Position numbers and translations under genes: made by a program
NCBI RefSeq assembly: GCF_002214165.1
Contig: NZ_CP019964.1
Coordinates: 780,001-812,000 of the forward strand
Source: Candidatus Saccharimonadota bacterium
GTDB taxonomy: Archaea > Micrarchaeota > Micrarchaeia > Micrarchaeales > Micrarchaeaceae
Direction of reading: 5' to 3'
Length of the DNA: 32,000 nucleotides
Part shown: one piece after another, positions 510-32,000 of the stretch
Position numbering within the stretch: the first letter of the stretch is position 1
Layout: each line of letters begins with the position of its first letter
The notes under the pieces: model-generated
What the model saw: only the letters and a program-made list of their open reading frames with translations
The model's database searches: none
What the model was told of the DNA's origin: nothing

Positions 510-613
510 CGGGCCCGACGGGATTTTCATGTTTGCTTTTTAGGACAAACAATTTGAACCCGTGACCATCAGCTTAGAAGGCTGCCGCTCTATCCAAGCT
601 GAGCTACGGGCCC
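510..613 (-). tRNA. tRNA-Arg(UCU) with a 29-nt non-canonical intron in the T-loop
   Basis: The minus strand reads GGGCCCG-TA-GCTC-AGCTTGGATA-GAGC-G-GCAGC-CTTCTAA-GCTGA-TGGTC-ACGGG-TTCAAAT-[insert, plus coords 523..551]-CCCGT-CGGGCCC-G. The 7-bp acceptor stem and the D and T stems pair perfectly, and the anticodon loop is CU-UCU-AA. The anticodon stem has one G27:A43 mismatch. 75 nt remain after the insert is removed. The insert is flanked by a bulge-helix-bulge motif (see findings). Confidence 0.85.
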
Positions 614-18693: not shown

Positions 18694-18766
18694 TAGCCCC
18701 GGTCGGATTCGAACCGGCGTATGCGGGTCCAAAGCCCGCAGTCCTTGGCCTCTAGACGACAGGGCT
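18694..18766 (-). tRNA. tRNA-Gln(UUG)
   Basis: The minus strand reads AGCCCTG-TC-GTCT-AGAGGCCAA-GGAC-T-GCGGG-CTTTGGA-CCCGC-ATAC-GCCGG-TTCGAAT-CCGAC-CGGGGCT-A, 73 nt in total. The 5' A is typical of archaeal tRNA-Gln. There is one C:A mismatch in the T-stem and one G:U pair in the acceptor stem. Confidence 0.85.
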
Positions 18767-18801: not shown

Positions 18802-19517
18802 CTATATAATTTTAGTCCACTTCTCTATAACGCTTCTTACTTCATCAAATTCCGGCAAGGGCACGAAAAGCAAGTTTTTGAGCTCTTTTTCAAATATACC
18901 CCTTTTATTAAGCAAGGATATTTCAAATTTATCTGGCAAAAACCTATCTCCGATATATTCTAACTTTTTATTCACTAAATTTATATCAAACTTTATATTT
19001 TTTTCCTTTATTAGATAATATAAGTCAATACATCACGTGCTTTATTCCTGCTTGTTATTGCCCTTATCTTTTCTGCACCCACTTCATCTAAATTTATTCC
19101 GTTAAGTACATGTATTGGCAATAGGTATTCAGGAAAATTTAATTTTATAGGCAGGGTTTTGTTTATTAGTTCTTCTCTTTTACTTATTTCTACATATACT
19201 ACACATCTGCTATTTTGGCTTGTATATAGAGGCCCCTGGGCCATTACCTTGAATGAAAATGATTTCTTATCATTAGTTTCAATTTTTGACTCGTTATAGA
19301 TTCCAAAAAGATCTAATCTTTCTGAAACTTTATTCATTATATTGCTTGGAAGATCGGATATCGCGGTAAAATCTAAATCTTCAGAAAAACGGGGCAGCCC
19401 ATTGAAAAACCATAGATAAGTGTCTCCCTTAAAAACTATAGATTCATCATAAAGTGAATTCAATATAGATGCTTGTATATAACGTTTCTCTTCTTGCCAT
19501 GCCTTTAAGCCTCTCAA
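18802..19517 (-). pseudogene. AbiEii/DUF1814-type nucleotidyltransferase toxin, frameshifted
   Basis: The N-terminal ORF (19011..19517) carries FKGDTYLWFFNGLPRFSEDLDFT, the GGTAL..RFSEDLDF-type signature. It stops at ...NKARDVLTYII*. A different frame continues as IDLYYLIKEKNIKFDINLVNKKLEYIGDRF...EKWTKII* down to 18802 and restores the family ARD..DLYYL motif. This implies a 1-nt indel near 19028-19031. Confidence 0.7.
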
Positions 19518-19531
19518 TTTAGCTATCTCAA

Positions 19532-20124
19532 TTAGTGCGTTTTTTTCAATGATGCAATTACCTTATTTATATTTTTACTCCCATAGCCTTTGTAGTTATT
19601 TGCAAGCTCAGTTAACCTCTTTTTATTTAAACTGCCAAGATACTCCTTCAGCTGATCTATCGAATACATACCTAAATATATACCATCGATTATGGCTTTT
19701 TCTGGTTCTGCAACGAATGCATAACTCTGCCCTCTCTCTACTCGTTTATACCCATAAAATAATGAAGGAGGTATCTTATGGTAATTTATCCCAAGCTCCT
19801 CCAATCTAATTGAGTTTACAGTGGTTACACACTCTATATCCCTTGGGACTTGCTGTATTATATCATGAAAAAGTAAGGCAGATTCGATTGATATATAAGA
19901 GGGATTTATTAGCTGGGAGGCTATAGCAAAATTGTCATCCACTAATGAATATTTTCCACGCATAATCCTCTTTGCAAGATTTTTTTAACCATCCGTGCTG
20001 CATAGGCATTCCCAAATTTTTTGGATTTGCCTAATATATTTGCTATTTCTGAGGGTGTTATGACTGCACTTCCTGTTTTCAATGCAAAGTTTTTTATTGA
20101 ATAGAGGTTATTTTCTTTTGCCAT
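19532..20124 (-). pseudogene. AbiEi-type antitoxin/transcriptional regulator, frameshifted in a homopolymer
   Basis: The 60-aa ORF (19942..20124, ...AARMVKKILQRGLCVENIH*) and the 143-aa ORF (19532..19963) join into one AbiEi-like sequence, ...ARMVKKNLAKRIMRGKYSLVDD...PSYISIESALLFHDII..., if the A7 run (plus T7 at 19980..19986) were A8. Confidence 0.65.
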
Positions 20125-22471: not shown

Positions 22472-23410
22472 TCAATAAAAAGATTCGATAGCTCTGTGGT
22501 ATGGGTTCTTTTTGTAAGTACCTTCTATTGGAATCTTACAGCCGCATTTCTTGCATCTGTTATCATTATCGAGATCCCACCTGGTTATCCCAAAGCCGTT
22601 CCTCCTTATAACTTCCTCTCCGCAGTTTGGGCAGTAAGTGCTTTCGTGTTCGTTTCCAGGAACGTTCCCTATGTATACGAACCTCAGCCCGTTCTTCTTC
22701 GCTATCTCATAATGCTCTTCCAAGCTCTTTAAGCTGGTATAAGGGTAATTGTACATCTTGTAATCCGGGTAGAACCTTGTAAACTGTATCGGCGTGTCCC
22801 TGCCAATGTTGCCTGCGATCCACTTTGTCAACGAATCTGCTGCCTCCAATGAGTCTCCGACTTTTGGGACTATCAAATCGGTTATCTCTATGTGTATACC
22901 AGCTTTACTCAAGTTTAACAAAGTCTCTTTTATGGGTTCTTCTTTTGGGACTGTTTCGTACTTGTTCATGAATTTCTGATCGCCATTTCCCTTAAAGTCA
23001 ACAACCACTGCATCTATCTTTCCCTTTATCGCTTCCACTGCCTCCTTTGTCATATAGCCATTGCTTACGAATACGGTAAACAATCCGTTCTTCTTGGCCA
23101 AATCGGCAACATCCAGCGCATATTCTATAAAGATGGTGGGCTCGTTATAAGTAAATGCAATACCGTCAACTTTGTTGGCAATTGCCATATCAACCAAGCT
23201 TTCGGGGCTTACATAATCCTGGTTTATCTCTTTTTCCTTGGATATCGCATGATTCTGGCAGAATGCACAATCAAAATTGCATGAATCTGTCCCGACTCCT
23301 AGCACCCAGCTGCCTGGCATGAAGTGGTTGAAGGGCTTCTTTTCTATAGGGTCTATCTGCATCGCTGATAAAGAATCAGGATACCAATAAGGCATACGCA
23401 GAGGTGTCAA
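22472..23410 (-). CDS. Radical SAM enzyme, AmmeMemoRadiSam / PflA-like family (N-terminus appears short)
   Basis: The product has DPIEKKPFNHFMPGS, then CNFDCAFCQNH (CxxxCxxC), and a C-terminal CPNCG...CKKCGC zinc ribbon. The start is TTG 23410 or ATG 23395, and an in-frame stop lies at 23429..23431. Confidence 0.8.
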   Translation of the reverse strand: MTPLRMPYWYPDSLSAMQIDPIEKKPFNHFMPGSWVLGVGTDSCNFDCAFCQNHAISKEKEINQDYVSPESLVDMAIANKVDGIAFTYNEPTIFIEYALDVADLAKKNGLFTVFVSNGYMTKEAVEAIKGKIDAVVVDFKGNGDQKFMNKYETVPKEEPIKETLLNLSKAGIHIEITDLIVPKVGDSLEAADSLTKWIAGNIGRDTPIQFTRFYPDYKMYNYPYTSLKSLEEHYEIAKKNGLRFVYIGNVPGNEHESTYCPNCGEEVIRRNGFGITRWDLDNDNRCKKCGCKIPIEGTYKKNPYHRAIESFY

Positions 23411-23595
23411 ATAATGACAACATACTTCTCAAAGGAATGAGCAAATCAACATTCTTTCAGAGCGTAAACTATTTACAGAACCTTGGATTAATCACCTTAA
23501 TAAAGAAAAAGATTGGCAGATACTATACAATGGAGTCGCAAATATTATTATCAGACGAATCAATAGTATCTGCGGAGCTAAGAAAAAGAATTTGA
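23404..23595 (+). CDS. Small winged-helix-like ORF or gene fragment at the island boundary
   Basis: STFFQSVNYLQNLGLITLIKKKIGRYY resembles a recognition helix plus wing. The GTG start overlaps the radical SAM start on the other strand, and ATG 23437 is an alternative start. It may be a remnant. Confidence 0.3.
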   Translation: MSNNDNILLKGMSKSTFFQSVNYLQNLGLITLIKKKIGRYYTMESQILLSDESIVSAELRKRI

Positions 23596-23621: not shown

Positions 23622-23629
23622 TTTATATA
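23622..23629 (+). promoter_or_regulatory. TATA-like box (TTTATATA) about 27 nt upstream of the GC-rich island
   Basis: The spacing fits archaeal TATA-to-start geometry if the island is transcribed from the plus strand. The flanks are AT-rich, so a chance match is possible. Confidence 0.3.
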
Positions 23630-23654: not shown

Positions 23655-24105
23655 TTCCGCTTCGACTCAAATTCACCCCGACTTCGCTCCGCTCAGCCAC
23701 CCCTCTTTGAGCCTCCGCTATTTACTATGTGCCCTCCGCTCGCCTGCACGCCGAGCACAGGACCCCATGCTTCGCCTCCAATCAAAATTCACCCCGTCTT
23801 GCTTACGCAATCCACCCCTCTTTTGATTTACGGCTCGCACTCTTTCTCCGAAAGAGCCCCTCCTTTGCTACGCTCATCTGGGGTGGTGTCCTGTGCTCGC
23901 CGCTCGTGGTGTATGTGTGGTGCTACACACCATCGCTTCGCTTGGTGTTCCACACCACCCACCGCTGACGCTTACACCACTCGGTCCTGCTTCGCAGGAC
24001 TTCCGGCTCGCTTCGGGCACATTATTCTCTCCTGCGGAGTGCAATATAGGGGAGGGGGCTTAAGGGGATGCTTGACCGCACAATGTCGCTTCGCTTAGTG
24101 CGGAT
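23655..24105. ncRNA. GC-rich, hairpin-dense non-coding island; candidate novel structured RNA or ssDNA-active site (strand unresolved)
   Basis: GC content jumps sharply against AT-rich flanks. Five perfect hairpins, a 12-bp long-range inverted repeat and two paralogous stem-loops with compensatory closing pairs are present. The heptamer GCTTCGC occurs four times. Only implausible overlapping ORFs lie here. Details are in the findings. Confidence 0.45.
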
Positions 24106-24167: not shown

Positions 24168-24341
24168 ATGGATAAGAAAGATGTTGAAAACTTGATGAAT
24201 GCGATTAAAATGACAGTGAACGTAGTTAAAAATGAATTTGATGTATTGGAGGGGATTGATAAAAAAGACCCAAAGAAAACACTTGACAGTATTAGCAAAG
24301 CCATAGATGATTTCTTAACCGATTTAAAGGGATTTAAATGA
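24168..24341 (+). CDS. Small acidic helical ORF (57 aa), hypothetical
   Basis: It reads ATG...TGA as MDKKDVENLMNAIKMTVNVVKNEFDVLEGIDKKDPKKTLDSISKAIDDFLTDLKGFK. It falls below the ORF-track cutoff and I have no homology knowledge. Confidence 0.3.
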   Translation: MDKKDVENLMNAIKMTVNVVKNEFDVLEGIDKKDPKKTLDSISKAIDDFLTDLKGFK

Positions 24342-24368
24342 ATCTTAAAATAGATTGGATATAATCTA

Positions 24369-24548
24369 TTATTTTCTTACGAATTTTACATTTACGTTTG
24401 GTACAAACCAAGAAGGAGTTCCCACGTCGATTTCATTTAGTTCAAATTTTCTTTGTCTGGTCTTCCTATCAACATTTTTAGTATATCCTCTTACGTATGT
24501 TCCATCTCTTCTTTTGTACGGCTTTACCCAAGCCTTATTAATCCACAT
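24369..24548 (-). CDS. Small basic ORF (59 aa), hypothetical nucleic-acid-binding protein
   Basis: The product is MWINKAWVKPYKRRDGTYVRGYTKNVDRKTRQRKFELNEIDVGTPSWFVPNVNVKFVRK. It lies antisense to the listed hydrophobic ORF 24355..24573 (TTG start). Which of the two, if either, is real cannot be decided here. Confidence 0.3.
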   Translation of the reverse strand: MWINKAWVKPYKRRDGTYVRGYTKNVDRKTRQRKFELNEIDVGTPSWFVPNVNVKFVRK

Positions 24549-24678
24549 TATAATATCATATCAAAATGATTAAAAACATTTTCTATTTTAGTATTCACTT
24601 AAAACATTAATCAAATCCCGACCGGTCCATTTAAACTATTAATCGAATACTTCTTATGCCATTACTCGTTATGCTATC

Positions 24679-25949
24679 ATGACCATTCAGCCCAAGTATC
24701 AGGATCTTCTTCTTGATGAGGATGTGCGGAGATGGTTTGAAAATTTAAGGGCAAAGTCAGTTTTGACTGCAACGGTGGCATTGAGAAACCTCGGTCATTA
24801 TTGCGAAATGACAGGAACAACGCCCAAGCAGATTCTCGAAAAGGCAAGGAAAAACGAGAAGGATTTCCGCTATGAATTTTCTGATTTTGTAAGGGAAATG
24901 GAGAGTAAAGGAAAAGCGGGCTCATACATTGCAAGGTTCAAGAAGGTTATTCTGTCATGGCTGAAGTTTAACGGTATCCGTTTACAGTTAGCCGTTAACA
25001 TATCCGGAGAGAACGAAACGCCGACGATAGCAAATGAGAGAGTGCCCAGCAAGGAAGAGCTTGCAAGAATATTGAGAAAAGCGACATCGCGAGGAAGGGT
25101 TATCATAGCATTAATGGCATTTTCAGGGCTAAGACCGGAATCGCTTGGAGATTACGAGGGCACTGATGGATTGCGATTGGGAGATTTAAAGGAGTTAAAA
25201 CTATCAGACGAGATACAGTTCGACAAGATCCCTGTTACTGTAATGGTGAAGAGCAAGCTTAGCAAGGCAAGGCATCAGTATTTCTCATTCATAGGTGAGG
25301 AGGGAGCAACATACATAAAGGAATACCTCGAAGAGAGGAGGAAACAGGGAGAGGAACTGACCTATGATTCGCCGCTGTTGCAGTTCGATGTCCGAGGAAT
25401 AAAGAAGAATGCATTCCTAAGGACAACGCTCGTTACAAGGGATGTCAGAGATGCAATATACGGGGCAGCGTATTAAGGGCGTATTTCTCAATGGCACTTG
25501 ACATAGCAGAGAGCAAGGGCTTAATATCGCATCCTTGGAGGCAGTTCATAATGGGGCACAAGGGCGATATCGAAGCCAGATACAGCACGAACAAGAGACT
25601 GCCTCCGGACATGATCGAGGAGATGCGCGAATCGTACAAGAAATGCTTAAAGTACCTCGAAACAAGGATAACAGAGCCATCGGAGATCGATGCAAAAATA
25701 TACCTACAACAGCAACTGCTTCTCGCAGTGGGCTACAAACAGGATGAAATCGATATGATGAACCTTGCTGAGATGGACAACGATGCATTCCAGAAACTTC
25801 TTCGCGACAAGGTTGCTGGCGCAATGTCAGGCAACGGCTCAAAGCAGAGGCTCGTGCCTGTAGATGAAATAGAAAAATTCCTCAGTCAAGGCTACGAGTT
25901 TCAGGCAGTTTTGCCCAACGGAAAGGCTATAATGAAAATGCCGTTTTAA
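24679..25949 (+). pseudogene. Tyrosine recombinase/integrase (archaeal integrase family), split by a frameshift
   Basis: ORF 24679..25476 has a SAM-like N-domain and box I (AFSGLRPESLGD). ORF 25491..25949 has box II (HPWRQFIMGHKGDIEARY). The conserved VLRAYFSMALDIAE segment is readable in frame 3 from 25461 (RGSVLRAYF...), while frame 1 ends ...RDAIYGAAY*. This implies a 1-nt indel around 25455-25465, next to a G4 run. Confidence 0.85.
25912..25942 (+). repeat. Direct repeat copy 1 (31 nt, inside the last codons of the integrase)
   Basis: TGCCCAACGGAAAGGCTATAATGAAAATGCC is identical to 27736..27766. Confidence 0.95.
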
Positions 25950-26002: not shown

Positions 26003-26878
26003 ATGGGTAGCCGTAAAAATGAATTAATAATGAGCGGAGCTGTGATAGTAAGCAAAGATGGAAACGTTTTGAAAACAAAGATTAATAACTACAAAACACC
26101 GATAAAAGTGTCACCAAAGATTCCAACCCCCAACGTTATCGCCAACAGTGGCTTGAAAAATATGTCTCTGATTTTCTCAGATAAGACACAGGGTTACCAC
26201 ATGGCATTCCGGGAAATGAATTATGACATCACAGAAAAGCAGGTAGTTCAGTCAGGAAAAGCATATTCATTATATTTTGAGATAACAGATGATGAAGACA
26301 CGACATATTTGGAAGGAAATATAATCCCTCTCGAAAGCAATAAAGGCGTTTTATTTTTATCGGTTAATGTTTCTCCCAAGAATCCAGAAAATGTTGACCT
26401 TTTTTCCCTTCCCATAGTCATTCGTTATAAAGGAAGCTTTCTGTCCATAATAAAAGACTTGAGTTCCATCATAAGTAATTTGAAAAAAGATGCGTCGACG
26501 AAACGAAACAGAATTTATGGAAAAATGGTGTCTCTTCTTGAAGCTTTTCCTGACATATATGCAAATAATCGAAATCGATTAGATATCATAAATAATCTAG
26601 AACTATCGTTCAAAGTTACCCTTATGGATTTTAATTTTACATGTTGTCTCGAAAATGCATTAAGTTTGACCGATTGTGTGCTTAGTGTTCCAGATATTGA
26701 AGAAATATGTGCTGAATGTTTGGTTTTACCCGATTGCTTGGCAGCTTGCTTTGACTTCCTAACACTCCCTGCATGTCTTGTCTGTTTTAGTCTTGATGTT
26801 CTTGCTTGCGCCTATTGTGTATATAAAGCAGGAGAATGCACTGAAGATGCAATAAAAGTGATTGACTGCTGCAAGTAA
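26003..26878 (+). CDS. Cassette 1 lead protein: Cys-free 213-aa N-domain plus a 78-aa hydrophobic C-terminal region with 14 Cys (candidate archaeocin precursor)
   Basis: The 291-aa product has no Cys in residues 1-213. Its Cys residues fall at 214, 215, 225, 236, 239, 245, 249, 258, 261, 269, 272, 279, 289 and 290 (nt 26642..26875). No N-terminal signal peptide is evident. Confidence 0.7.
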   Translation: MGSRKNELIMSGAVIVSKDGNVLKTKINNYKTPIKVSPKIPTPNVIANSGLKNMSLIFSDKTQGYHMAFREMNYDITEKQVVQSGKAYSLYFEITDDEDTTYLEGNIIPLESNKGVLFLSVNVSPKNPENVDLFSLPIVIRYKGSFLSIIKDLSSIISNLKKDASTKRNRIYGKMVSLLEAFPDIYANNRNRLDIINNLELSFKVTLMDFNFTCCLENALSLTDCVLSVPDIEEICAECLVLPDCLAACFDFLTLPACLVCFSLDVLACAYCVYKAGECTEDAIKVIDCCK

Positions 26879-27734: not shown

Positions 27735-27773
27735 CTGCCCAACGGAAAGGCTATAATGAAAATGCCTTTTTAG
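27735..27773 (+). pseudogene. Orphan integrase C-terminal remnant (13 codons, LPNGKAIMKMPF*) containing direct repeat copy 2 (27736..27766)
   Basis: CTG CCC AAC GGA AAG GCT ATA ATG AAA ATG CCT TTT TAG encodes the same peptide as 25911..25949. It differs only at synonymous positions (TTG/CTG, CCG/CCT) and in the stop codon (TAA/TAG). Confidence 0.85.
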
Positions 27774-27930: not shown

Positions 27931-28572
27931 ATGACCTGCAGTAATTGTTTTGATGCAAATGGTAGAAAAATAACAAGAATAAGTGTGCCACATAAGGAGG
28001 AATATACAGAGGGGAAACTAAAAATAACGGAAGGTGTGACAATTGTTCATTACAAAGAGGGCCCAGGGACGATCCTAAATTGGAAACAAATAATTGAGGG
28101 CAATACCTCCTCCATTGCAGACATAACTTATATTATACAATATAATGGTAAAAATATTACAAACAAGTTTAAAACCAAATACATTGACACAATAAATGGC
28201 AAGAAACTTGTTCACGTTGACGGAACTGGATTGGGCTCTAATGGGAAAGTAAACGTAACTAACAAGGATATTGCTCTTTCAAATGTAAAATCAGATCCAA
28301 ACGCCATTGAATGTCTTATTTGTCATGCTCTTGGAACCGTGCTTTGTACACTTCTTGCAGAGGGTGTATCAGAGGACTTAGCTTGTGAAGAGGCATCTGG
28401 CATCGTATGCTTAGAATTCATAGAGGATCCTATTGTTTATGTCGTTTGTTTTGGGGTTGTCGCATCAATTTGCGATGTTGTTCTACAAACAGTAATAGAT
28501 ATTGGTGTTCATGTTGCATGCGACCTTGGTGCAGACTACATATGCGAGAAGGCGATTGGATGTTCTTTATGA
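27931..28572 (+). CDS. Cassette 2 lead protein: beta-rich N-domain plus an 86-aa hydrophobic C-terminal region with 10 Cys (candidate halocin-C8-like precursor)
   Basis: The 213-aa product has the C-terminal spacing C128-x2-C-x7-C-x12-C-x7-C-x12-C-x7-C-x15-C-x7-C-x5-C211 (nt 28312..28569). A CxxC sits at residues 3-6. No signal peptide is evident. Confidence 0.7.
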   Translation: MTCSNCFDANGRKITRISVPHKEEYTEGKLKITEGVTIVHYKEGPGTILNWKQIIEGNTSSIADITYIIQYNGKNITNKFKTKYIDTINGKKLVHVDGTGLGSNGKVNVTNKDIALSNVKSDPNAIECLICHALGTVLCTLLAEGVSEDLACEEASGIVCLEFIEDPIVYVVCFGVVASICDVVLQTVIDIGVHVACDLGADYICEKAIGCSL

Positions 28573-31084: not shown

Positions 31085-32000
31085 ATGAAGGAAACTGGCT
31101 TCTCTGACTTTGTAAACGCAAGGAAGATCCTCTCAAAGCCGATAATAGAACTACCAATAAGAAATCAGGAGAGGCTTTTCTATAACCCATTTTCAAGGCT
31201 AAAGAGGTTCGCAGGGCATTCAGCGTTGGCCTATGCCATTGTTCCCGATATGGAAAAGGGAAAGTTCAGGAGGGAGGAATGCTCAGCAAGAGCCATTGAT
31301 TTAAGGGATTACATAGAGCACAAGGGAAACAGGAATGTGTCCATAACAGGTGTATCAGGGCAGGGAAAGAGCTATCTCACGATACATTTACTATCGAAGT
31401 TCAGCGAGAAGCAGAGGATCATATTCTCGTTCAAGCCCGATGACCATGAAGTCCATCTTGGAATACCAGTAATAGATGCAAAGCAGTGCTTACCGAATCC
31501 GTTCAGGGACATAAATGCCTTCTCAGAGGCTTACATGACCGCATTTTTCAGTGAGAAGACAAGCACAGGAATACAGCTACAGCAGACACCAGCTTTTCTG
31601 CAGGAAATAGCCTCCCAGAGCAACGACTGGAAGACATTCATGAAAATGATATCCGAAAAAAGAAAATCAGCCTCGAAGAACCAGATCGAAACGCTCAACG
31701 CAATAGAGCAGAATGTGAAATCGCTCATAATCGATGACATGGGAAGCGTGGAAATAGGCAGTGAAAGCATTGTGTTTGATTTCTCAACATTACCGACGAA
31801 GCAGTCCCAGAACTTCTATGCCGAGCTTATGCTAAGGCAGATCTACAGGGAGATGGAGGAACGCAAAAGAAAGGATGTTTTGATATGCATAGACGAGGCT
31901 CACAGGCTTACGAAATCCTATCATACTATTCTTGATGTAATGAGCCGTGAGATAAGGGACAAGGGAATGCTCTGGATAATAACGCAGAACCTTATCGATA
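31085..32000 (+). CDS. P-loop NTPase, HerA/VirB4/DUF87-like (3' end outside window; absent from the ORF track)
   Basis: The frame is open from ATG 31085 to the window end (305 codons). Walker A is ITGVSGQGKSY and Walker B is DVLICIDEAHRL. Confidence 0.8.
   Translation, partial: MKETGFSDFVNARKILSKPIIELPIRNQERLFYNPFSRLKRFAGHSALAYAIVPDMEKGKFRREECSARAIDLRDYIEHKGNRNVSITGVSGQGKSYLTIHLLSKFSEKQRIIFSFKPDDHEVHLGIPVIDAKQCLPNPFRDINAFSEAYMTAFFSEKTSTGIQLQQTPAFLQEIASQSNDWKTFMKMISEKRKSASKNQIETLNAIEQNVKSLIIDDMGSVEIGSESIVFDFSTLPTKQSQNFYAELMLRQIYREMEERKRKDVLICIDEAHRLTKSYHTILDVMSREIRDKGMLWIITQNLID

Follow-up and report, generated by a model that had tools for sequence, protein, structure and literature searches.

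A hairpin-rich non-coding module with covarying helices in plasmid-like elements of Micrarchaeota and Thermoplasmatales

In the 32,000-nt window analyzed here (positions 780,001 to 812,000 of contig NZ_CP019964.1, a Micrarchaeota genome), the left breakpoint of a block of foreign DNA is marked by a 5′-truncated host gene for an AmmeMemoRadiSam-type radical SAM protein (22472-23410, minus strand; Pfam Radical_SAM). In the closest relative (L012) this protein has 352 residues, with about 45 more at its N terminus, and the 3′ end of the 23S rRNA lies upstream. A plus-strand ORF of 63 aa follows (23404-23595), a gene remnant that corresponds to the C-terminal winged-helix fragment of an Orc1/Cdc6-like protein: by BLASTP it clusters with the C termini of a 368-aa (L138) and a 196-aa (L100) protein, and its full-length homolog at L007, a match to the orc1/cdc6 NCBIfam model (6.5e-29), shares 45% identity with Cdc6 of the Picrophilus oshimae plasmid pPO1. 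Next comes the subject of this report, a GC-rich island at 23659-24103, then two small ORFs without family matches (24168-24548; 57 aa on the plus strand, 59 aa on the minus strand) in a slot between island and element end that holds variable cargo in other family members. The segment closes with an attR-type junction (24590-24629, plus strand), where the conserved right-terminal motif GTATTCACTTAAAACATTAA precedes the att core TCAAATCCCGACCGGTCCA; this core represents the tRNA-Ala 3′ end (24611-24629) and is repeated at 18861-79 of L006, another stretch of the same genome. The same type of junction is found in L113, L129 and L132 and at L006 18863, and an intact tRNA-Ala occupies the junction position in L007, L008, L011 and L128. 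Beyond it lies the left end of a neighboring element, E1 (24630-25949, plus strand), whose tyrosine integrase is split into ORFs of 265 and 152 aa, with an intact 429-aa homolog in L128. Both elements of this genome are defective.

This arrangement revises the initial annotation, which had assigned the island to the edge of the integrase-bearing element; that element begins at 24611 with the tRNA-Ala 3′ fragment, and the island is part of the right-end remnant of an older, tandem one. It sits between Orc1/cargo and attR of a tRNA-Ala-integrating element, in the orientation shared by its family, and is itself a relic in that the element has lost everything to the left of the last 63 Orc1 codons. 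The suggestion that the island might be an att site or integration target does not hold either: the att site is tRNA-Ala, its core being that gene's 3′ end. A host ncRNA gene as integration target was likewise rejected, because 67 related Micrarchaeota genomes have no such island upstream of their radical SAM gene, the closest relative carrying 23S rRNA there instead. Nor is part of the island repeated as an att sequence at the other element end (no att-type duplication longer than 12 nt in the window); what lies near the far end of the neighboring element, outside the window, is a complete paralog (L006 16763-17280, ~88% identical and 13.7 kb downstream). An 11-nt repeat that flanks the island is confined to the window, the flanks at other loci being different.

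The abrupt rise in GC content noted earlier is borne out, with 0.58 at 23701-24000, while the adjacent 300-nt segments have 0.33 and 0.38. Only two ORFs of at least 60 aa fall in the island, overlapping on the plus strand (23727-24098, 123 aa; 23729-23968, 79 aa) and with Cys/Pro/Arg/Ala-rich products, together with eight shorter ones over both strands, and no reading frame is conserved among homologs. Coding is excluded because a 1-nt indel separates two samples of the same organism, the hairpin at 23840-23856 differs by 2 nt between the window copy and all homologs, and indels of hairpin size occur among the homologs; these frameshifting indels, along with the covariation described below, also rule out a degraded coding fragment. 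An AT-rich box, TTTATATA, is indeed present upstream (23622-23629), and such boxes occur on both flanks, but homologs do not share the plus-strand TATA box, which is hence no evidence for a gene. The enrichment of the heptamer GCTTCGC stands as described: four of its seven occurrences in 32 kb lie in the 450-nt island (23769, 23935, 23989 and 24088), reading GCGAAGC on the minus strand. The predicted fold is far stronger than that of shuffled sequences, with z-scores of -5.7 (plus) and -6.4 (minus) under RNA parameters and -5.6 (plus) and -6.2 (minus) under DNA parameters, a range of -5.6 to -6.4 that is uninformative on strand or molecule. For the window copy and for full-length type A and type B sequences, scans of both strands against Rfam 15, which includes RNase P, SRP, tRNA, rRNA, group I/II introns, GOLLD, ROOL and HEARO, gave no match at the gathering threshold and none that was meaningful even at E ≤ 10. 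A known RNA family was thereby rejected, the only strong Rfam matches being tRNAs and, in a relative's locus, 23S rRNA.

All five perfect hairpins first described in the island are present (23840-23856, 23984-24000, 23944-23956, 24029-24039 and 24076-24103), and the minus-strand loops of the four with triloops read GGA, GAA, GGA and GCA, a G-N-A pattern that extends across the family. At the left end, hairpin H1 (23664-23713) has the closing stem GACTCAAA/TTTGAGCC and the conserved loop blocks AATTCACCCC and CCACCCCTC, separated by a variable sub-hairpin. Helix P2 encloses the core by pairing its 5′ arm ATGTGCCC (23727-23734) with the 3′ arm GGGCACAT (24015-24022), and 98% of its cells are paired according to RNAalifold and pair counts. 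The 12-bp long-range inverted repeat reported earlier is real and in fact longer, forming the 19-nt helix P4 with 89% complementarity between 23749-23767 and 23884-23902. Within P4 lie H2 (23780-23828; closing stem AATCAAAA/TTTTGATT), whose sub-hairpin TTGC-TTAC-GCAA has the loop GTAA on the minus strand, and H3 (CTCTTTC-TCC-GAAAGAG, 23840-23856; minus-strand loop GGA). The paralogy of H1 and H2 is confirmed, with 0 matches expected by chance and closing stems that covary over five lineages. On the other side of P4 are the branched hairpin H4 (GTGGTGTA...TACACCAC, 23906-23980), with a 24-nt insertion hairpin that some homologs have and some do not, and H5 (GGTCCTGC-TTC-GCAGGACT, 23983-24001), one C-G pair of which in the window is T-A in all other homologs. 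H6 (CTCC-TGC-GGAG, 24029-24039) reads CCCT-TGC-AGGG in half of the family, a compensatory swap of two pairs (UA:9/CG:8 and CG:9/UA:8; 100% paired), and H7 (CCGCAC...GTGCGG, 24076-24103), tipped by a GC-TTC-GC mini-hairpin, is where conservation of the window copy ends. On the minus strand the terminal loops are, almost without exception, 3-nt G-N-A with a C-G closing pair and a free middle base; one is a GNAA tetraloop. The G-tracts of the island are also present, among them the block GGGGAGGGGG ... AAGGGGA (24047-24070, plus strand), which is complementary to the CCCCTC/CACCCC loop blocks of H1 and H2 and is invariant, as are they. A long-range or tertiary pairing between the two is possible, and the corresponding regions pair in the minimum-free-energy structure of L116; C-rich loops engaged with G-rich tracts might form a pseudoknot, or else a G-quadruplex or i-motif suited to an acidic cytoplasm.

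The proposal to collect homologs by BLASTN and test them for covariation was fruitful on both counts, and that the island has relatives is a new result. The window copy, copy 1 of what we call the type A module, matches the family profile with an nhmmer E value of 1e-150 and is assigned to the minus strand as the one on which the loops read G-N-A, the functional strand being putative. It shows the family hallmarks, namely the AATTCACCCC ... CCCCTCTT loop hairpins, the long-range helix GAGCACAGGAC/GTCCTGTGCTC and the G-tract block. Matches were obtained in 41 metagenome stretches, 16 of them near full length at 75-98% identity, and at least 25 relatives lie on contigs from acidic hot-spring metagenomes. 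The window copy shares 75-87% identity with 16 members, and contigs L100-L140 stem from acidic hot springs and acid mine drainage. The GC-rich intergenic region IG2 of pPO1 is also homologous (BLASTN E = 1e-8 over a 48-nt block with 94% identity), and the module spans two archaeal phyla, in element types with little else in common. Full-length relatives continue into a 3′ module consisting of a ~30-nt AT-rich loop on a 9-12-bp GC stem clamp and then the small hairpin ACCTTTTGGAAAAGG; it is found in copy 2 (L006), L116, L110, L120, L132, L101, type B and pPO1 and is missing from the window copy, which stops after H7 with neither the ACCTTTTGGAAAAGG hairpin nor the AT-rich-loop hairpin. Deletions at microhomologies, or from one paralogous hairpin to the other, have given rise to many derivative copies (L140, L133/L139, L124, L126 and L112). 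Metagenome contigs often end inside the module. Among PLSDB plasmids pPO1 is the only match, and no circular contig, the sign of a free plasmid, was found among L100-L140. A viral origin was rejected, since pattern scans of IMG/VR gave only chance matches and the INPHARED phage collection contains no match to the module; so was a MITE or other small mobile repeat, for which the other loci offer neither terminal inverted repeats nor target duplications, and synteny is constant.

The relatives show that the fold itself has been maintained. In the type A alignment 88.5% of helix cells are paired, compared with 36-47% in slid controls, and the covariation score of 0.082 (0.058 in shuffled alignments) was reached in 0 of 500 shuffles. 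The closing stem of the C-loop hairpin (H1) occurs in five different sequences that are 96.9% paired, with six of its eight pairs changed on both sides and none on one side only. Comparison of type A, type B and pPO1 reveals compensatory differences in P4, which in pPO1 reads GAGCAGACGACAC/GTGTCGTCTGCTC and is compensatory relative to the window, in the 3′ hairpin and in one inserted hairpin. Compensatory changes affect at least six helices, and some helix arms lie 120-290 nt apart. Together, these data demonstrate homology, a structure conserved with covariation, a constant position and orientation, and the absence of a conserved ORF; covariation is selection on pairing and says nothing on the type of molecule.

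The plasmid pPO1 gives the module a free-living counterpart. Its IG2 shares with the island the two C-loop hairpins and the long-range helix with compensatory changes, shares with the family the GGGGAGGGG block and the 3′ hairpin module, and has the same neighbors, Cdc6, a methyltransferase and an FtsK-like ATPase. The two differ in that the 7.6-kb pPO1 exists free in a Thermoplasmatales host and the window copy is an integrated relic in a Micrarchaeota genome, and the central domain of IG2 departs from the window copy and is type B-like. Previously, IG2 was described as having a deviant GC content, no Tn5 insertions and possible DNA secondary structure, with no function assigned (Angelov et al. 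2011, PMC3177234). The module is the conserved non-coding backbone of pPO1-related, plasmid-like elements that integrate into the tRNA-Ala 3′ end, encode a membrane-anchored FtsK/HerA/VirB4-like ATPase and often Orc1/Cdc6, and exchange defense cargo (restriction-modification, toxin-antitoxin, nuclease) on both sides of it. The DNA-translocating ATPase is the only protein common to type A, type B and pPO1, in the last of which the module lies directly upstream of its gene. Wherever a locus has both int and att, the module keeps one orientation with respect to them.

Such surroundings might be expected of a selfish or structural palindromic spacer with no specific function, for example a transcription insulator between cargo modules or a homology patch for cargo swapping, reduced to inert debris in the window. 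Variable defense cargo always flanks the module, many copies are deletion derivatives, metagenome contigs frequently break within it, and both elements here are defective. We nevertheless consider a spacer highly unlikely: the module is retained, in fixed orientation and position, across dissimilar element types and two phyla, its pairing is under selection, its 450-600 nt with invariant unpaired blocks go far beyond the needs of an insulator, and the other loci lack the terminal inverted repeats or target duplications of a selfish repeat.

A double-stranded site, either a replication origin or a partition or translocase-loading site, is slightly more probable but still unlikely. Here the GAGGGG(T)/CACCCC repeats, which lie on the minus strand in the left half of the module and on the plus strand in its right half, would be bound by Orc1/Cdc6, by the FtsK-like ATPase or by the element's 209-aa wHTH-zinc-ribbon protein, in the manner of ORB G-strings, KOPS or the clt repeats of Streptomyces TraB. 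The invariant G-rich 6-9-mers in inverted orientation around a core, the ATPase with its FtsK/TraB/CedD-like affinities, the presence of Orc1/Cdc6 upstream in type A elements and pPO1, and helices equally good on both strands, as would fit a DNA-level feature, all accord with it. However, a protein-bound duplex explains neither the compensatory changes in at least six helices nor the distant arms, type B has the module without Orc1, and variable cargo separates Orc1 from the module where both occur. The region is moreover GC-rich (0.58), with no AT-rich core or unwinding element between the motif sets, and the CACCCC/GAGGGG repeats are not dyads, no canonical ORB dyad being apparent. In pPO1, the origin was placed by its authors at the AT-rich IG1 (PMC3177234).

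Of the two options left by the initial annotation, a new ncRNA or a ssDNA-active site, both stand, the att-region variant of the latter being refuted as described above. Our tentative preference, at somewhat less than an even chance, is for a folded ssDNA site that acts in cis, slightly ahead of a new large ncRNA. The helices are nearly pure Watson-Crick and their minus-strand caps are C(GNA)G triloops, and this leads us to lean toward DNA: among helix cells 1565 are Watson-Crick, with 86 G-U on the plus strand and 27 on the minus strand, and the G-U share of predicted MFE pairs is 2-9%, compared with 14.5-17.6% in a close relative's 23S rRNA fragment and 11-14% in shuffles. Minority mismatches (33, 27 and 25 cells) show no wobble preference on either strand, and the count of 33 G-U vs. 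27 A-C minority cells is uninformative for strand assignment. Low G-U could also stem from thermophily or from recent decay of many defective copies. C-G-closed G-N-A triloops are reportedly the signature of exceptionally stable DNA mini-hairpins, as studied by Hirao, Yoshizawa and SantaLucia, and the d(GCGAAGC)/d(C-GNA-G) type is known from the phage G4 and phiX174 origins. The module likewise contains GCGAAGC four times on its minus strand and ends most of its hairpins in C-GNA-G, but where the bacteriophage origins have single short hairpins, those of the module form the tips of helices within a far larger nested structure. The genetic context favors the same reading, as the ATPase is the only shared protein and neither a promoter nor a terminator is conserved at the module boundaries, which border on variable cargo.

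In the ssDNA-site scenario, element DNA would become single-stranded during replication or cell-to-cell transfer, and its minus strand would fold into 8-10 GC-rich hairpins in a nested arrangement, with C(GNA)G mini-hairpin loops at their tips and the conserved, unpaired G-rich and C-rich blocks exposed. Recognition of the folded strand would then allow complementary-strand synthesis to begin or mark the DNA for the translocase, a role presumably analogous to that of single-strand origins and ssi/leading-region elements of bacterial plasmids; in full-length relatives the adjacent 3′ module may, more speculatively, provide an entry or nick site. The bacterial ssoA/ssoU origins of rolling-circle plasmids and ssi/Frpo elements of the conjugative leading region, active only as a folded single strand, are similarly non-coding, plasmid-borne and fixed in orientation, combine imperfect hairpins with conserved unpaired blocks, and compare in location with the module, which adjoins an AT-rich-loop hairpin. 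They differ in having no sequence similarity to it, in their bacterial rather than archaeal hosts and in their length of ~130-300 nt, and the module's 450-600 nt, exceeding known single-strand origins, argues against a ssDNA site. So does the fact that Pfam, PHROGs and NCBIfam scans of element proteins, several of which received no assignment, detected no rolling-circle Rep (HUH), relaxase or other nicking enzyme, in a further difference from the bacterial systems. Finally, the pPO1 authors did not detect single-stranded intermediates (data not shown) and favored theta replication from IG1 (PMC3177234), which also weighs against it.

The principal alternative, possible if somewhat doubtful, is a new large structured ncRNA of ~450-600 nt, encoded by the elements and most likely transcribed from the minus strand, with GNA/GNRA loops and G-rich or C-rich loop-loop contacts, that acts in trans or as an RNP, for instance in copy control, in anti-defense or as a scaffold comparable to the GOLLD and ROOL RNAs of bacterial mobile elements. 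In the AT-rich genomes of thermophiles, islands of high GC content have classically been RNA genes, large RNAs typically have long-range nested helices, a multi-branch architecture and peripheral hairpins that come and go, and GNA and GNRA loops are stable in RNA also; these precedents count against a ssDNA site. The module fits them as a GC island within the AT-rich element of a thermoacidophile, with a closed multi-branch fold, long-range helices maintained by covariation, peripheral hairpins gained and lost as modules, highly conserved unpaired blocks and a very strong RNA-parameter fold that is best on the minus strand. A sub-hairpin loop is, moreover, limited on that strand to GUAA, GAAA and GGAA, and the sub-hairpin GACC-TAAA-GGCC has a G-U pair there but an A-C mismatch on the plus strand. 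GOLLD, ROOL and HEARO/omega RNA also span several hundred nt, are multi-branched, reside in prophages or plasmids near tRNA or att, and were found as GC-rich or conserved intergenic regions. Unlike them, the module is archaeal, has no Rfam match or IscB/TnpB partner, and is very low in G-U and dominated by triloops, which outnumber tetraloops by ~6 to 1, an excess unusual for natural RNAs. The rarity of G-U pairs without strand asymmetry also speaks against a transcript, as do the lack of a conserved promoter or oligo-T terminator at either boundary, where flanks are locus-specific, and the ending of upstream ORFs ~30 nt short of the module. A 57-aa minus-strand ORF to the left of many copies was considered as the downstream gene of a leader RNA and rejected; its antitoxin-like reading and own promoter-like flank have it counted as cargo.

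Whether DNA or RNA, the module may be an undescribed class of large folded nucleic acid, specific to mobile elements that move between DPANN symbionts (Micrarchaeota) and Thermoplasmatales, a proposition that we place just short of an even chance. As an RNA it would found the first family of large structured ncRNAs from archaeal plasmids; as DNA it would be the first single-strand origin, or the first "leading" element for transfer, in archaea. To our knowledge, the cis-acting replication and transfer signals and the ncRNAs of plasmids from Thermoplasmatales and DPANN archaea are almost wholly unstudied. The RNA case would give the enigmatic large RNAs of bacterial mobile elements an archaeal counterpart, and the folded-DNA case would supply the first evidence of a single-stranded stage for the elements described here. 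It accounts for the GC-rich IG2 of pPO1, a puzzle since 2011, as a member of the module family. The cultivable Picrophilus oshimae, whose strain DSM 9789 has pPO1 at about 12-15 copies per genome, provides a system in which the module is a defined target and for which a shuttle vector is still sought. Thermoplasmatales are the lineage of known Micrarchaeota hosts, and no other non-coding feature of the element family, which is present in both lineages, is as conserved as the module; since one lineage includes the known hosts of the other, the module points to probable gene flow between the lineages of symbiont and host.

The island (window 23659-24103) has a GC content of 0.58, set off by sharp edges from the 0.33-0.38 found alongside, and inspection of the sequence located every hairpin, repeat and motif where the initial annotation had placed it. 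The hairpin-dense structure described there also holds up in single-strand folding, which beats dinucleotide shuffles on both strands with RNA parameters (z = -5.7 plus, -6.4 minus) as well as DNA parameters (z = -5.6 plus, -6.2 minus). The island is non-coding, as had been proposed, because a 1-nt indel separates two samples of the same organism and 2-nt and hairpin-sized indels separate homologues; a protein-coding island is thereby ruled out. The recommended Rfam scan returned no family for either strand, even at E <= 10, and full-length relatives of the island likewise matched none.

Relatives of the island were found both by BLASTN and by pattern search. Against plasmids, BLASTN matched 48 nt of Picrophilus oshimae plasmid pPO1 (94% identity, E = 1e-8), within a 480-nt GC-rich intergenic region that shares the island's features. 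In the pPO1 paper (PMC3177234) this region is named IG2; its deviant GC content, its lack of Tn5 insertions and a possible secondary structure of the DNA are remarked on, no function is given, and the putative origin is put at the AT-rich IG1. A pattern built from the features common to the window and pPO1 yielded 41 metagenome stretches, comprising 16 near-full-length homologues of 75-98% identity (type A), about ten pPO1-like ones (type B), several deletion derivatives and four chance matches. A profile search further revealed that this genome has a second copy, outside the window and ~13.7 kb farther right (16763-17280 of L006, the locus that continues rightward), which is ~88% identical to the window copy and lies inside the neighboring, intact-looking element, 1.6 kb before its right-end junction, attR. 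Full-length members carry an additional 3' module, a 9-12-bp GC stem clamping a ~30-nt AT-rich loop and then a small hairpin; the window copy is without it and is a truncated relic. Miniature derivatives of 110-300 nt (metagenome contigs L140, L133/L139, L124, L126 and L112) stem from deletion at short microhomologies (e.g. CCTGC) or from the paralogous pair of C-loop hairpins recombining with each other, so that module decay is stereotyped.

The covariation test suggested in the initial annotation came out positive. In the type A alignment (17 sequences), the proposed structure has 88.5% of its cells paired, compared with 36-47% once partners are shifted by 1-3 columns, and the covariation score of 0.082 (0.058 shuffled) was reached by 0 of 500 shuffles. 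The hairpin H6 (window 24029-24039) occurs in two forms, CTCC/GGAG and CCCT/AGGG, in about equal numbers. The closing stem of the C-loop hairpin takes five unrelated sequences, GGCTCAAA, AATCAAAA, GGCAAAAA, TGCACGAA and TAAAAAAA, each with its exact complement; 96.9% of its cells are paired (score 0.777 vs. 0.25), with two-sided changes in 6 of 8 pairs and one-sided changes in none. In pPO1 the long-range helix reads GAGCAGACGACAC/GTGTCGTCTGCTC, type B and pPO1 differ by compensatory changes in an inserted hairpin and the 3' hairpin, and peripheral hairpins are gained or lost across the family as whole units. Judged from these alignments, the module's structure is under selection, and we regard a module with no specific function as highly improbable.

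The initial annotation placed the island at the edge of the integrated element. It is indeed mobile-element DNA, but it is part of what survives of an older tandem element, a right-end remnant of 1.2 kb; this conclusion was drawn from the junction at 24590-24650, a truncated radical SAM gene and an Orc1/Cdc6 C-terminal ORF. The visible integrase-bearing element starts only at 24611, so the island cannot be part of it; from there on, 99% identical DNA adjoins an intact tRNA-Ala(TGC) in three other genomes. Here, that tRNA is reduced to its last 19 nt, TCAAATCCCGACCGGTCCA, which are repeated 14.9 kb onward (L006 18861-18879). The motif GTATTCNCTTAAAACNTTAA lies within 20 nt left of the 24611 core and precedes every attR in the family, and 24590-24650 therefore reads as one element's right end butted against the next element's left end. 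The host radical SAM gene (22472-23410, AmmeMemoRadiSam-type) is missing ~45 N-terminal codons, a Cys-rich motif among them, and L012, the closest relative, has the 3' end of 23S rRNA 110 nt upstream of this gene; this implies that an inversion or translocation broke the DNA both at the radical SAM gene and within Orc1 of the remnant element. The 63-aa ORF at 23404-23595 corresponds to an Orc1/Cdc6-like C-terminal winged helix (intact relatives, 366-368 aa). The host is a Micrarchaeota (DPANN) MAG, and an origin of the island in host DNA was rejected, as 67 related Micrarchaeota genomes lack the island in the syntenic region. Elsewhere in the window, an Rfam tRNA match at 555-613 (minus strand; 32.3 bits, barely over the gathering score, with 3 nt covering 18 model positions and no ARAGORN call) may represent a tRNA that has degenerated, a piece of one, or a further att remnant. 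At 19011-19963 (minus strand), a 168-aa ORF for an AbiEii-type nucleotidyltransferase toxin and its 143-aa upstream partner form a type IV toxin-antitoxin pair that adjoins tRNA-Gln (18694-18766) and is possibly another small island.

Type A elements run from tRNA-Ala through integrase, small membrane and Cys-rich proteins, ATPase, further genes, resolvase and Orc1/Cdc6 to variable cargo, module, further variable cargo and attR; type II/III restriction-modification and toxin-antitoxin genes lie left of the module, and OLD nuclease and others fill the 0.5-3 kb between module and attR. The type B element L128 (~7 kb) has no Orc1. Only one protein, an ATPase of 580-660 aa, is common to type A, type B and pPO1; it has weak but consistent affinities to HerA/DUF87, AAA_10, VirB4, CedD, TraB and the STIV B204 packaging ATPase, and in the type B representative inspected (L103) it carries N-terminal membrane helices. 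The module of pPO1 sits immediately upstream of the ATPase gene.

Both elements of this genome are defective, with an integrase split into two ORFs and an ATPase whose N-terminus has been joined to the C-terminus of Orc1. The two ORFs of the tyrosine integrase (24679-25949), 265 aa and 152 aa long, occupy different frames; every sample of this organism shows the split, as do L007, L008 and L011, and the L128 homologue is intact (429 aa, 83-88% identical). The split could reflect a frameshift pseudogene, or possibly programmed frameshifting. The 465-aa fusion ORF (31085-32000 and beyond; L006 10447-11844) arose by a 7.3-kb deletion relative to L007, where the FtsK/HerA-like ATPase has 581 aa; ParA, the resolvase and a CI-like S24 repressor were among the genes lost. 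Inside the element, all versions keep a 37-nt direct repeat (97% identical), with one copy at the 3' terminus of the C-terminal integrase ORF (~25912-25948; L006 5274-5310) and one in the intergenic region ahead of the 213-aa gene (~27736-27772; L006 7098-7134). The 291-aa (26003-26878) and 213-aa (27931-28572) proteins end in unusual Cys-rich hydrophobic tails and matched no Pfam, PHROGs or NCBIfam family; these two proteins, along with several small membrane proteins, suggest a surface, vesicle or virion-like function for the element. Near the module, a conserved 57-62-aa ORF (L107, L117, L119, L120, L122, L110; L006 16569-16745), consensus MxxxxSRLVSIPKSDLESLEATxETLENEYVMDQLERSEQDIQKGRVRNVREFLKEL, points away from the left edge of many copies and is read as antitoxin-like; its L006 copy shares 4 nt with a convergent ParE-toxin ORF, and the conserved flank CAGATTTTAATACCTTTTGG looks like its promoter.

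As to what the module does, we tentatively favor a folded site of single-strand DNA that would act in cis, in the manner of an sso, ssi or leading-region element, and work together with the element's DNA-translocating machinery. Its helices are almost wholly Watson-Crick (1565 cells, with 86 plus-strand and 27 minus-strand G-U), and minority mismatches (33 plus-strand wobble, 27 minus-strand wobble, 25 other) therefore show no wobble preference. Predicted G-U content in four members is 2-9% on either strand, compared by the same method with 15-18% for a relative's 23S rRNA fragment and 11-14% for shuffles, and the cross-lineage closing stem has zero one-sided changes. Nearly all hairpin tips carry, on the minus strand, a C-G-closed 3-nt G-N-A loop with a free middle base; d(GCGAAGC) with its GNA triloop bonuses is the classic ultra-stable DNA mini-hairpin, and natural RNAs favor tetraloops. 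A conserved promoter or terminator is absent at both module boundaries, and flanking cargo differs in every locus, which also counts towards DNA. A new large ncRNA is a slightly weaker contender, in keeping with the reasoning applied to GC islands in thermophiles, a closed fold with multiple branches, peripheral hairpins that behave as modules, invariant unpaired blocks, and a sub-hairpin loop restricted on the minus strand to GUAA, GAAA or GGAA. Counting against the folded DNA site, no Rep or relaxase was found in the elements, and no ssDNA was seen by the pPO1 authors (PMC3177234). A duplex origin or protein-binding array seems unlikely, and ranks below both the folded DNA site and the ncRNA and above a lack of specific function. 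For archaeal plasmids, either a folded single-strand DNA site or a large ncRNA would be a novelty; it is the family revealed by the window copy, rather than the relic itself, that is of interest, and this family is open to testing in the cultivable Picrophilus oshimae.
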